From UHGV virus genome UHGV-0300374: DNA of 64,000 bases; one strand, 5' to 3'. Below are positions 40,664 to 43,189 of the stretch, piece by piece. Source of the DNA: a virus. Numbering within the stretch: position 1 is the first letter of the stretch; each line of letters begins with the position of its first letter. Under the pieces are notes generated by a model. The model did no database searches, was not told the origin of the DNA, and was given only the letters and a program-made list of their open reading frames with translations. The position numbers were made by a program, and so were the translations under genes.

Positions 40664-40933
40664 TTACTTCCTCGTTTTAAGAACTGCTAAGATTTCTTTA
40701 GAGTCTGGTAAGAACCATGTGTAGTGATTCTCTTTGATTTCTGGATGAGTGTCAACCTTTATTTTGCACTCTTTACCAACATGCTTAAGCTGTGCTGTGA
40801 CACCTTGCATAAAGATATGGCACATCACATTATCCATAATGGTTGGTAAGAAATCAATTCGCATATAAGTTTCTTTTGGTCGTGGCAACAGTAAGTAACC
40901 TTCTACATAGAAAGTGTCTTGATTCTCTGTCAT
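40664..40933 (-). CDS. hypothetical protein
   Basis: ORF track, 89 aa. Confidence 0.4.
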   Translation of the reverse strand: MTENQDTFYVEGYLLLPRPKETYMRIDFLPTIMDNVMCHIFMQGVTAQLKHVGKECKIKVDTHPEIKENHYTWFLPDSKEILAVLKTRK

Positions 40934-41199
40934 TGCTGCTTATTCCCTAATAAAATCATGTCAATAAGGTTGTTAGCTTTGATTGTGCACTGGTAAAAGC
41001 CGTCACGATAGAACTCAAGGGCTGCTGCTACATCACTGCCTGTGTTACCTTTGATGATATACCGTGATTCTTCTTGAGTGTACTTATCACTCTCACTTAC
41101 TTGGGAGTTTTTGAATGTACTGCTCACTTTGTTCGTTGAACACCCTGACATAGTTATCAGTAACACAAACATTATAAAACTCTGGCTTAGTTTTTTCAT
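40930..41199 (-). CDS. outer-membrane lipoprotein, o-spanin candidate (Rz1-like)
   Basis: Signal peptide plus lipobox FVLLITMSGC; overlaps in another frame the 3' end of the upstream type-II membrane protein. Confidence 0.5.
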   Translation of the reverse strand: MKKLSQSFIMFVLLITMSGCSTNKVSSTFKNSQVSESDKYTQEESRYIIKGNTGSDVAAALEFYRDGFYQCTIKANNLIDMILLGNKQQ

Positions 41200-41440
41200 A
41201 TGTTAGTACCTCTTTTGTATGCTTATTCTTAGCAAGCACATCTTTCAAATCATTTTTGTAATTGGTGCTCAGTGTGACTAACCCTTCCTGATAAGCATCT
41301 TTAGCAACACTTATGAGCTTTTGATTGTTTAGCTCAGTTTCAGCAACTTGATAGTCTCTGTAAGAGTATCCTCCCCAGACACCTGCACCAACTAAGAAAA
41401 CAATTATGAAAGTAGCTTGACAGAACTCTTTAAATGTCAT
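41093..41440 (-). CDS. i-spanin candidate (Rz-like type-II inner-membrane protein)
   Basis: N-terminal TM helix FIIVFLVGAGVWGGYSY followed by charged helical region; overlapping lipoprotein gene. Confidence 0.5.
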   Translation of the reverse strand: MTFKEFCQATFIIVFLVGAGVWGGYSYRDYQVAETELNNQKLISVAKDAYQEGLVTLSTNYKNDLKDVLAKNKHTKEVLTYEKTKPEFYNVCVTDNYVRVFNEQSEQYIQKLPSK

Positions 41441-41457
41441 TTAACAATCTCCTGAAA

Positions 41458-41480
41458 TGAAAAAGGCTCCCGAAGGAGCC
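41458..41480 (-). terminator. intrinsic terminator
   Basis: ggctcc-cgaa-ggagcc hairpin with U-run on minus strand. Confidence 0.55.
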
Positions 41481-41492
41481 TGTATCTTAACC

Positions 41493-41957
41493 TTAACCGA
41501 GGACTTTAGCAAGGACATTTGCAGCCATCGAAGAAGCTTTTGCAGCAGCAGCTACCCCAGCTTTGACAGTGCTATCCTTGATAGCAGATACCGTTGCAGC
41601 ATCAGTAAAGAGATAAGTAGTTGTTTTAGAACCACTTGTAAAGGAAAGCATAAGAGCAGTTTCCAGATTGAAAGAGCGATACGGAGCACCTTCTTTAACG
41701 ATACCTTCAGCACCTAATTCTGAAGCCATCCCCATATCATAGATAGTCATCAGGTTTTCTTTGTGTGCTGTGGTTGAGCCAGAACCCTTTACGTGTTTCT
41801 TAACATTCAAAAGAGCACGATACTCTCGGATGTTACCGTCTGCTTTTACGTTGACAGCACGGAAGATTTTACCCTCAAAGTTGCTCTTGATAATGTTACG
41901 AACTACTTCAGATTTGTTTGCCGTAACGTCAAGTGCTACCGTAATGATATTGTTCAT
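41493..41957 (-). CDS. hypothetical protein
   Basis: ORF track, 154 aa, followed by terminator. Confidence 0.45.
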   Translation of the reverse strand: MNNIITVALDVTANKSEVVRNIIKSNFEGKIFRAVNVKADGNIREYRALLNVKKHVKGSGSTTAHKENLMTIYDMGMASELGAEGIVKEGAPYRSFNLETALMLSFTSGSKTTTYLFTDAATVSAIKDSTVKAGVAAAAKASSMAANVLAKVLG

Positions 41958-41967
41958 AAGTTTTCTC

Positions 41968-42663
41968 TCAATGTTTAACTAACATGGTTTTGATGTGTGG
42001 AAGGATTCTGTTCACCTTCTGCACATTCTTCTCTGTGTCTTCTATAAAACATACTATATTAAAGTAAGGCAGAATGCAAGACTGAATCATCCTCACTTTC
42101 AAACTTTCTGCACTTATAGAGTTAGTCCCAAAACCACGCATAAAAAGCATGTAGTCATGCTCTGTGTTATGCCTTAAAAACATCTCAGTAGGTATTCTCT
42201 GAGATTCACCTCTCGCTGTCAAGAGTCCAACAGCAGCATGATTAGCAATTGCATCAATGATATTGAAAACATACGTTGGTTTTGCTCTTACAGAGTCAAG
42301 AAGATTAGTGTACTGCGAGAATGAACCGTCAGTCAATTCCGTTGAACAATCTTCGTGATTAAAATTTGTAAGAACACCATCAATATCTGCTAAGATGAGA
42401 TTCCCTTTTTCTACAAGGTCTTTATTGACTATGACTAAGCTATCACGACTTACACCTATAGTTTGTCCAGTCTCTTTATCTACAACATTCACAATTGGCT
42501 CTGATGTGTGAAACTCTTCTAGTGAACATACAACTTCTCTTGCAGTGTCTTCAAAATCCCTACACTGTTCTGGAGTCCATACACAGGAATCAAGACCTAA
42601 CTCATAAGGATGTAAGTCATAAGCGTGACACAGTACTTCATCAGACTTTTTTAATTTTTTCAT
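41968..42663 (-). CDS. HAD-superfamily hydrolase (phosphatase/nucleotidase candidate)
   Basis: Motif I LILADIDGVLTNF (DxDG) and downstream LTARGES segment; no P-loop. Confidence 0.45.
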   Translation of the reverse strand: MKKLKKSDEVLCHAYDLHPYELGLDSCVWTPEQCRDFEDTAREVVCSLEEFHTSEPIVNVVDKETGQTIGVSRDSLVIVNKDLVEKGNLILADIDGVLTNFNHEDCSTELTDGSFSQYTNLLDSVRAKPTYVFNIIDAIANHAAVGLLTARGESQRIPTEMFLRHNTEHDYMLFMRGFGTNSISAESLKVRMIQSCILPYFNIVCFIEDTEKNVQKVNRILPHIKTMLVKH

Positions 42664-43189
42664 GGTTTACCTTAGAAATGTTTGTTGCAAATTCACATTG
42701 AGCAATAACTTTCATGTTGTTATAGACATCTTGAGAATATTTCTTAGCTTTAGGGATTCTGTACGAATACCCAGCATTATATGATGCTAAAACTTTTTGT
42801 AAAGTCTTCTTTGACTTTGGCTGACCATGCACCTTTGTCCAAAACTCAAGCTCTTTGTGAGTTTCCTTCGCAGCATAATCAAAGTCTCTTAAGAGTTTCT
42901 TTTTAGCCACATTAGGGCTAATTTTGTTACGCTTTACAACAGTCTTCAAGTGATTCTGGAAAATACCATAATCATGTGTCTTTTTATTCTCTACCTTCAG
43001 ACCTAACTCTGACTCTTGTAAGGCTATAGCAGCTAGAGTGATACCCCAACCTTTACCCATGTTATTCTCACCATACTGGTAAGCTTTTAACATGTTTACT
43101 TTTTGGCTAATTGATAGCTCTGGGCAGTTAACTGCATAAGATAAGTGTGCTGTAAACATTAAGCACAAACCTAGAATCAATTTCTTCAT
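42641..43189 (-). CDS. secreted soluble lytic transglycosylase (SLT-domain) protein
   Basis: Signal peptide MKKLILGLCLMFTAHLSYA; SLT motifs QESELG, YGIFQ, ASYNAGY. Confidence 0.55.
   Translation of the reverse strand: MKKLILGLCLMFTAHLSYAVNCPELSISQKVNMLKAYQYGENNMGKGWGITLAAIALQESELGLKVENKKTHDYGIFQNHLKTVVKRNKISPNVAKKKLLRDFDYAAKETHKELEFWTKVHGQPKSKKTLQKVLASYNAGYSYRIPKAKKYSQDVYNNMKVIAQCEFATNISKVNHEKIKKV

Follow-up and report, generated by a model that had tools for sequence, protein, structure and literature searches.

Spanin and SLT genes of the window

Genes for lysis and cell-wall functions were analysed in a 64,000-nucleotide (nt) stretch of the virus genome UHGV-0300374 (hereafter the window), which by its sequence is the genome of a Felix O1-like lytic myovirus of the genus Felixounavirus, subfamily Ounavirinae. 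The best nucleotide matches were found to be Escherichia phage Andreotti (97.8%) and Salmonella phage Meda, with identities in the range of 97-98%, and 258 phage records matched a 2.8-kb query around the spanin/SLT locus. The window was found to be collinear with Andreotti, positions 1-33321 corresponding to Andreotti 51351-83243 and positions 38880-64000 to Andreotti 16-26266. The minus strand of the locus contained the gene of an inner-membrane spanin subunit (i-spanin; 115 amino acids (aa); 41093-41440) followed by the gene of an outer-membrane lipoprotein subunit (o-spanin; 89 aa; 40930-41199). The same strand contained, at 42641-43189, the gene of a predicted secreted protein of 182 aa with SLT/GH23 fold, a homologue of T4 Vs.1 corresponding to Felix O1 ORF3, and a GH24 endolysin of 154 aa was found on the plus strand at 24789-25253. 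These four open reading frames (ORFs), flagged earlier by a sequence-only reading of the window, were all present where that reading had placed them. The spanin and SLT ORFs are not chance ORFs, since they are kept in relatives, the spanins down to 25-33% identity and the SLT protein in matches to 2,122 phage records.

The i-spanin was identified from its ORF, a transmembrane domain (TMD), its PHROG match and the annotation of relatives, and the o-spanin from its ORF, a lipobox, its PHROG match and, likewise, the annotation of relatives. Export signals of all proteins described here were called from hydrophobicity, inspection of motifs and conservation in the family. The i-spanin was found to contain a single hydrophobic segment at residues 6-24 (hydrophobicity over 19 residues, KD19, 1.75) followed by 91 residues, and this arrangement was kept in six homologues. 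Its predicted orientation is that of a type-II membrane protein, the bulk of which would be periplasmic. The N-terminus of the o-spanin contained MKKLSQSFIMFVLLITMSGC followed by STN, with the lipobox L-I-T-M-S-G-C20 (MSGC), its cysteine at position 20 and Ser at +2. No Asp, the inner-membrane retention residue, was present at +2. The lipobox Cys was found to be invariant in the alignment of six homologues, followed by Ser or Thr at +2.

The o-spanin ORF was found to start within the i-spanin gene, in the +1 frame, the two genes overlapping by 107 nt and the o-spanin extending 163 nt past the i-spanin stop. The sequence-only reading had described the pair as embedded or overlapping; it is overlapped, not embedded. 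Both starts were preceded by Shine-Dalgarno sequences, the ribosome-binding site of the i-spanin being AGGAG. Against PHROGs, the i-spanin matched phrog_1152 ('Rz-like spanin', E 1.1e-41), and the o-spanin matched the unlabelled phrog_4180 (E 2.2e-50) followed by phrog_456 ('Rz-like spanin', E 3.4e-4). In the alignment of six lineages, the i-spanin kept Cys92 throughout, within its C-terminal periplasmic motif F-x-N-x-C-x(4)-Y-x(4)-N, and Cys71 of the o-spanin was invariant in a conserved C-terminal motif. A disulfide through the lone conserved periplasmic cysteine of each subunit probably stabilises the complex, as this conservation suggests. At least one periplasmic cysteine has been reported in 507 of 528 two-component spanin systems (Kongari et al. 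2018, PMC6139136). The earlier suggestion of a spanin-like pair at 40930-41440 was borne out by the TMD, the lipobox, the +1 overlap and the phrog_1152 match, and by the presence of the pair in a catalogued family of two-component spanins.

Relatives of the spanin pair

The two proteins were found to be annotated as i-spanin and o-spanin in Meda, Andreotti and many GenBank records. Searches with tblastn returned 407 phage records for the i-spanin and 400 for the o-spanin, with similar counts by organism name, and these ranged over Ounavirinae, phiEco32-like podoviruses (Kuravirus), Erwinia Kolesnikvirus and Sashavirus siphoviruses. The loci of Moogle, 'Listeria' phage LPML1, Erwinia phage Fifi318, phiEco32 and Salmonella phage Sergei were read directly, and in each a lipoprotein ORF was found to overlap the 3' end of the i-spanin gene by 107-164 nt. 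In some of these loci the overlapping lipoprotein ORF was present though the record omits or truncates its annotation. The overlap, the lipobox Cys, the Ser/Thr at +2, Cys92 of the i-spanin and Cys71 of the o-spanin were kept without exception across six lineages with identities as low as 25-33%.

In Salmonella phage Sergei the homologous pair was found at the end of a canonical holin-endolysin-holin-i-spanin-o-spanin cassette (BLASTP of the window proteins against those of Sergei: i-spanin E 8e-9, o-spanin E 2e-12), whereas the pair of the window lies outside any cassette. The 'JH2' i-spanin family has been listed with the members Felix01, FO1a, Moogle, Mushroom, wV8 and phiEco32, and the 'JH2' o-spanin family with Felix O1-like members (Kongari et al. 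2018, PMC6139136). The window spanins were found to be 77-100% identical to the listed members and to share with them a type-II i-spanin, a lipoprotein o-spanin, overlapped genes and periplasmic cysteines, and no feature was found that sets the window pair apart. By these sequence features the window pair is a member of this catalogued two-component spanin family.

An unannotated o-spanin ORF overlapping the i-spanin gene was found in the record OK283618.1 ('Listeria phage LPML1', 3441-3984), which also carries a Vs.1-like gene. The phage is labelled as infecting Listeria, a Gram-positive host, yet it is classified in Ounavirinae; its host label looks doubtful because a spanin is of use only in Gram-negative hosts.

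The SLT protein

The N-terminus of the SLT protein was found to contain MKKLILGLCLMFTAHLSYA followed by VN. A Sec signal peptide is predicted at residues 1-19 (43133-43189, minus strand) from hydrophobicity and family conservation, with cleavage after SYA. The hydrophobic core comprised about 13 residues followed by S-Y-A and then V, and small residues at -1 and -3 were also present in 13 aligned relatives. A hydrophobic N-terminal segment was found in 151 of the 159 Vs.1-family members with complete N-termini, and the signal-peptide region had low pLDDT (predicted local distance difference test) in the AlphaFold2 model of the window protein. The N-terminus thus looks like a cleavable signal peptide and not like a signal-anchor-release (SAR) domain, which is a long, weakly hydrophobic TMD rich in Gly/Ala and has no cleavage site. 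With its short core and its cleavage site the protein departs from a SAR endolysin, and its gene follows rIIB, not a holin, as a cassette gene would.

The motifs E59-S60 (with Glu59 as the candidate catalytic residue), G75-I-F-Q78, S136-Y137-N-A-G140 and Y151 were found in the mature part. Among 168 aligned relatives, Glu59, Y137, G140 and Y151 were conserved in all 168, followed by S60 in 162, G75 in 160, Gln or His at position 78 in 159 and N138 in 157. On this alignment all four family-1 lytic-transglycosylase motifs are intact across the Vs.1 family, the pattern expected of an active enzyme rather than of an inactive binder. The predicted fold was found to be the goose-lysozyme/SLT (GH23) fold, and precomputed PF01464 matches were present in four more distant relatives (30-39% identical). 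Cys22, just past the predicted cleavage site, and Cys165, near the C-terminus, were both present in 77 of the 168 sequences, both absent in 77 and discordant in 14. This co-occurrence fits a probable structural disulfide of the exported protein.

A search of the PDB with the single sequence returned no matches, so that a family profile was needed. With this profile the best sequence match was EtgA (E 1.7e-4), Asp73 of the window protein aligning with Asp60 of EtgA. Position 73 was occupied by Ser in 93 members of the Vs.1 family, by Asp in 55 and by Ala in 15, and Asp is not conserved there. A scan of six proteins against NCBIfam gave one meaningful match, to a DarG-like macro domain encoded by a neighbouring gene. 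The secreted SLT-domain protein that had been proposed for 42641-43189 was supported by a signal-like N-terminus, family-1 SLT motifs and a predicted GH23 fold. The lipobox, the signal-like segment and the alignable SLT motifs, whose absence had been named as what would speak against the proposal, were all found. Judged on sequence and model, the protein is best described as a single-domain GH23-fold protein of the Vs.1 family with predicted Sec export.

Breadth of the Vs.1 family

The SLT protein matched phrog_600 over residues 1-170 (E 1.9e-57), and T4 vs.1 was found in the same PHROG. The tblastn search returned the 2,122 phage records given above, which included all 258 Felix O1-like records and ranged over T4-like phages, Vi1-like Ackermannviridae and Vibrio, Aeromonas, Acinetobacter and Klebsiella myoviruses; the identity to vs.1 of RB14 was 31.6% (tblastn E 5e-9). 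In the Felix O1 RefSeq record ORF3 is noted as similar to a 'protein in vs-regB intergenic region'. An exhaustive profile search returned 1,154 cluster representatives with E<=1e-3, of which 591 also had E<=1e-10. Most of the 150 representatives listed were proteins of one domain, about 150-270 aa long and as a rule 160-200 aa. Members were found in T4-like, Vi1-like, Felix O1-like and chimallin-encoding jumbo phages. The gene vs.1 was conserved in all six T4-like genomes compared by Nolan et al. (2006), who found marginal similarity to SLT. On the function of Vs.1, only Nolan et al. (2006) and Adler et al. (2025) were found in the literature.

T4 Vs.1, which is labelled 'conserved hypothetical protein', was found to resemble the window protein in length (181 against 182 aa), in a signal-like N-terminus and in its SLT motifs, with about 31% identity over 85% of the length. 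Both genes lie in an early-middle block with a macro-domain (Tk.4-like) gene nearby. The two differ in that T4 Vs.1 contains neither the Cys22/Cys165 pair nor Asp73, and in that T4 vs.1 comes after regB whereas the gene of Felix O1-like phages stands behind rIIB and shares an overlap with a HAD phosphatase gene. To the EtgA, IagB, IpgF and VirB1-type transglycosylases of type III/IV secretion the identity of the window protein was only about 20%, and its gene lies in a lytic phage without a secretion-system partner; the likeness would be one of function and not of family membership. In comparison with the family-1 lytic transglycosylases and goose-type lysozymes (Slt70, MltC, MltE, MltF), the window protein fell below the Pfam SLT threshold and contained no accessory domains.

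A member that seemed bacterial, annotated as 'transglycosylase SLT domain-containing protein' in a Campylobacter coli assembly (GCA_053226485.1; 8001-8582), was found about 1.4 kb from a gene for chimallin, the nuclear-shell protein of phiKZ-type phages. It was rejected as a bacterial member, the 215-kb contig with its chimallin gene being probably a jumbo phage. From this neighbour the Vs.1 family would extend to nucleus-forming phages.

Endolysin and holin

The endolysin at 24789-25253 matched Pfam Phage_lysozyme (E 6.8e-41) and the endolysin PHROG phrog_7 (E 5.3e-58), and the motif E15-x8-D24-x5-T30 was read from its sequence. No signal, SAR or hydrophobic segment was found in it (best KD19 value 0.81), and it is therefore taken to be cytoplasmic and holin-dependent. 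A GH24 endolysin with no holin beside it, as had been described, was thus found at this place. The preceding plus-strand gene (23404-24789; 461 aa) contained four tandem Ig-like repeats (Pfam Ig_3, 5.7e-45), and its last base doubles as the initial base of the start codon of the endolysin. From this shared base the endolysin may be translationally coupled to a late gene whose product is probably on the virion surface.

The annotated 'holin' of Andreotti (123 aa with one N-terminal TMD, encoded between thymidylate synthase and the tail fibres) was found to map outside the 64-kb window, and tblastn with this protein and its small neighbour found no copy in the window. With three loci, one for the endolysin, one for the spanins and one outside the window for the annotated holin, the lysis functions are split as the sequence-only reading had it, and the lysis genes stand at separate loci as in T4. 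That Felix O1, like T4, is without a holin-lysin cassette, its lysis genes being scattered, was described by Whichard et al. (2010).

A search for holin topology among the membrane proteins of 25305-30439, which had been recommended, yielded only the product of 28114-28647 (plus strand; 177 aa), not a typical holin. It contained a soluble N-terminal part of 95 aa followed by two C-terminal TMDs, and matched the unlabelled phrog_4343 and no Pfam family. Its topology would be atypical, though not disqualifying, for a holin. Three small minus-strand ORFs in the nucleotide-metabolism block (52868-53068, 53044-53205 and 55415-55621; 66, 53 and 68 aa) contained one or two strongly hydrophobic segments each. 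The last of them adjoins a glutaredoxin gene and contained two TMDs, with the size of a class II holin; its Andreotti counterpart is annotated as 'putative membrane protein'.

Gene order and transcription units

The minus strand was found to contain, in the direction of transcription, rIIA and rIIB followed by an intrinsic terminator (43253-43276, also annotated in Meda), a perfect TATAAT (43221-43226) and the AGGAG ribosome-binding site of the SLT gene (43195-43199), all on the minus strand. The SLT gene was followed by a HAD phosphatase-like gene, a gene of 154 aa and a further intrinsic minus-strand terminator (41464-41481), AGGCTCC-TTCG-GGAGCCT with a T-run, which is annotated in Meda and lies 24 nt upstream of the i-spanin start. 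Next in order were the genes of the i-spanin and the o-spanin, four small ORFs, a macro-domain gene and a terminator at 39124-39083. Because of the strong terminator at 41464-41481, the SLT gene and the spanins form adjacent but separate units. No promoter-like sequence was seen in the gap between this terminator and the i-spanin gene, so that the spanins are probably transcribed by read-through or from an upstream promoter.

In L016, a relative with 37% identity, the order rIIA-rIIB-SLT-HAD_PNKP was found with the same short overlap in its SLT-HAD_PNKP pair (8001-9162), together with an ORF5 homologue and a macro-domain gene, and no spanin pair was present at its SLT locus. A conserved linkage of SLT and spanin genes was rejected, as L016 keeps rIIB-SLT-HAD phosphatase without spanins there. 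The T4 order is regB-vs.1-vs-tk.4, the last with a macro domain, and the T4 spanins lie beside pseT about 73 kb away. A T4-like proximity of spanin and PNK-type genes was considered and set aside, the gene order differing and the synteny being loose at most.

Expression and knock-down in related phages

In Felix O1, reverse-transcription PCR (RT-PCR) placed the peak of ORF3 (SLT), ORF4, ORF6 (i-spanin) and ORF35 (endolysin) at 25 min, that of ORF2 and ORF5 at 10 min and that of ORF13 at 5 min. ORF3 was not among the identified virion proteins of Felix O1, which argues against a virion-carried entry enzyme.

Knock-down data were available from CRISPRi-ART screens that included T4 and the Ounavirinae phage SUSP1 (Adler et al. 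2025, PMC11879866). In these, T4 vs.1, listed as a gene of unknown function, had a fitness of 0.81 (p 0.10, Semi-Fit), followed by T4 pseT.2 with -0.19 (p 0.82, Not Fit) and pseT.3 with -0.16 (p 0.81, Not Fit). In SUSP1, the SLT homologue agp083 had a fitness of 1.02 (p 0.28), the i-spanin agp086 of -0.54 (p 0.72) and the o-spanin agp087 of -1.38 (p 0.92), all three being Not Fit. On these values the SLT protein would be mildly beneficial at most under laboratory conditions. For spanins, dispensability is the expected outcome of such knock-down assays.

Interpretation of the lysis and cell-wall genes

The findings are probably explained by a two-component spanin, scattered lysis genes and a Vs.1-type accessory wall enzyme working in the periplasm ahead of lysis. 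The phage lambda Rz/Rz1 and T4 PseT.3/PseT.2 pairs are models of two-component spanins. A holin would release the cytoplasmic GH24 endolysin (24789-25253), followed by degradation of the wall. By analogy with Rz/Rz1 and PseT.3/PseT.2, the C-termini of the two spanin subunits would then bind across the periplasm, and the complex would disrupt the outer membrane, probably by fusing it with the inner membrane. The SLT protein would be made from the rIIA/rIIB early-middle block and exported by Sec. The best guess is that it is a dispensable accessory enzyme which cuts glycan strands in the periplasm during the latent period, and this cutting may make the sacculus looser or reshape it before lysis sets in, in the way of the local wall opening by EtgA, IagB and VirB1. 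On this reading the SLT gene is not the endolysin of a second cassette. An accessory wall role is favoured because the gene is unlinked to holin, endolysin and spanin genes in T4, Felix O1-like and jumbo-phage contexts, and because the protein has the look of a cleavable signal, not of a SAR endolysin, and was dispensable in the knock-down screens.

Several observations weigh against this explanation. Proline is absent from the o-spanin, which differs in this from lambda Rz1 and contains a conserved, probably helical C-terminus; a proline-rich region is also absent from the T4 o-spanin family (Kongari et al. 2018, PMC6139136). No similarity to the T4 spanins PseT.3/PseT.2 was detectable by BLASTP or hhalign, and homology to them was rejected, the matches being confined to the signal peptide and lipobox. 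The AlphaFold2 model of the i-spanin was mostly helical (helices 39-57, 65-79 and 85-111) with low confidence (pLDDT 56, predicted template modelling score 0.43). The spanin genes belong to an early-middle block in which a terminator precedes them, and the gap between it and the i-spanin gene showed no evident promoter. For the SLT protein, the Pfam SLT match (PF01464; 19.4 bits, E 8e-4) was below the gathering threshold of 21.3 bits, the Foldseek E-values of the model were weak (6e-3 at best), and the Fisher value for the co-occurrence of Cys22 and Cys165 (3e-31) ignores phylogeny. The fitness signals of the knock-downs were small and could be subject to polar effects, and no experiment on these exact spanin and SLT proteins was found in the literature.

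Other explanations were weighed for the lipoprotein and for the SLT protein. The lipoprotein of 89 aa might, as had been suggested, be a factor of superinfection exclusion or receptor masking instead of a spanin; T5 Llp and Cor are factors of this kind. It is a small lipoprotein of outer-membrane type encoded in the early-middle region far from the endolysin, it is without the proline-rich region of Rz1, and its best PHROG is unlabelled. Against this stand the +1-frame overlap with a homologous i-spanin in six loci, the near-equal numbers of records (400 and 407), the Cys71 motif at its C-terminus mirrored by the Cys92 motif of its partner, the homologous pair closing the lysis cassette of Sergei and the cataloguing of the family as spanins. 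The receptor of Felix O1 is lipopolysaccharide (Whichard et al. 2010), which a lipoprotein of Llp type would not be expected to mask, and no Llp or Cor family was found among the PHROG, Pfam and NCBIfam matches of the lipoprotein. The exclusion factor is on this evidence highly improbable. Scarcely more credible is a catalytically dead SLT-like protein that binds the wall or acts as an inhibitor; the sub-threshold Pfam score is in keeping with it, but the catalytic Glu and the E-S, G-x-x-Q/H, Y-N-x-G and Y motifs were invariant or nearly so in 168 diverged relatives.

The SLT protein might further be a second, Sec-exported endolysin that builds up in the periplasm and degrades the wall upon depolarisation of the membrane, independently of a holin or in the manner of a pinholin system, in parallel to the GH24 lysozyme. 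Its signal-peptide-type N-terminus, GH23 muralytic fold and intact catalytic Glu would suit such an enzyme, the RT-PCR peak in Felix O1 falls into the same 25-min class as that of the endolysin, some records annotate the protein as 'putative lysin', and 'some role in cell lysis' was proposed for vs.1 (Nolan et al. 2006). In Maynard, a gene annotated 'holin' was found four genes upstream of the SLT homologue. This second endolysin is nevertheless improbable, as the SLT gene stands apart from holin, endolysin and spanin genes in T4, Felix O1-like and chimallin-encoding jumbo phages, as the short core and the small-x-small cleavage site provide no SAR anchor to restrain the activity, as lysis by T4 is fully explained by e, t and pseT.2/.3, and as knock-down of the SUSP1 homologue was without fitness defect. 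A non-lytic periplasmic role, such as a change of the wall that hinders superinfecting phages or the lysozymes of their tails, the production of anhydro-muropeptide signals or a local opening for an envelope-spanning complex, for example the spanin, is a possibility of some standing, short of the probable accessory wall role. It is consistent with expression from the rII block and not with the structural genes, and with EtgA, a 'specialised' transglycosylase whose Asp60 aligns with Asp73, as the closest solved sequence relative. It would also suit a large family of 1,154 cluster representatives, whose members with context examined were all phage-borne (2,122 records and three loci), and conservation in spite of dispensability in the laboratory, which is typical of competition genes. 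Set against it are the unconserved spanin linkage, the SLT genes of L016 and T4 having no adjacent spanins, and the lack of conservation of Asp73 across the family.

The spanins were already catalogued, and the scattered lysis genes and the relationship to Vs.1 were already in the literature or in database annotation. The analysis adds two points to this, that the active-site motifs are invariant across the family and that a pair of cysteines co-varies. The window contributes one more Vs.1 member, with Cys22/Cys165 and the EtgA-like Asp73 defining a subfamily, and a clean annotation in which the spanins are overlapped and not embedded, the endolysin is cytoplasmic and holin-dependent by prediction and the annotated holin lies outside the window. 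The predicted secreted transglycosylases of Vs.1 type form a large family in several groups of large lytic phages, with active-site motifs intact. A rather doubtful extension is that the Vs.1 family as a whole is dedicated to remodelling the wall from the periplasm, its members being secreted long before lysis, with a role in competition or in preparation of the envelope. If so, it would be a conserved phage function overlooked so far, for example one that alters the sacculus against superinfection or helps the threading of spanins. Felix O1-like phages serve in the typing and biocontrol of Salmonella and E. coli, and the distinction between a lysis gene and an accessory enzyme is relevant to the engineering of lysis timing.

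Neighbouring genes and further observations

The gene downstream of SLT (41968-42663, minus strand; 231 aa) is annotated as 'polynucleotide kinase' and matched phrog_3970 (E 2.5e-134) and positions 158-282 of phrog_505. Its product was found to contain only the HAD phosphatase-like half (DIDGVLT), with weak BLASTP similarity to the phosphatase half of T4 Pnkp, and no kinase P-loop was seen in it. The start of this gene overlaps the SLT stop by 23 nt; it belongs to the transcription unit of the SLT gene and is probably not a lysis gene. In Meda it was found to be split in two. The last gene before the spanin-side terminator (41493-41957, minus strand) encodes a protein of 154 aa corresponding to Felix O1 ORF5, which matched phrog_2267 (E 4.2e-50) and no Pfam or NCBIfam family.

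Downstream of the o-spanin, SUSP1 contains agp089, which was 'Fit' and validated by complementation in the CRISPRi-ART screen (PMC11879866). It is a gene of 53 aa (L013 3538-3699) located two genes downstream of the o-spanin. Homologues of agp089 and agp090 were absent from the window, in which the homologue of agp088 (40664-40933) was directly followed by the ORF 40335-40661. Window positions 33321-38880 (about 5.5 kb) had no megablast counterpart in Andreotti and span the physical ends of the Andreotti record; they appear to form a variable region of small ORFs.

The spanin unit was found to end with a gene for a macro-domain protein of 261 aa (39154-39939, minus strand; Pfam Macro 2e-7; DarG-like antitoxin model 1.1e-12), which corresponds to Felix O1 ORF13 and is a homologue of T4 Tk.4. 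In phiEco32 a macro-domain gene was found directly after the spanins. The macro-domain protein of the window could act in counter-defence by reversing ADP-ribosylation.

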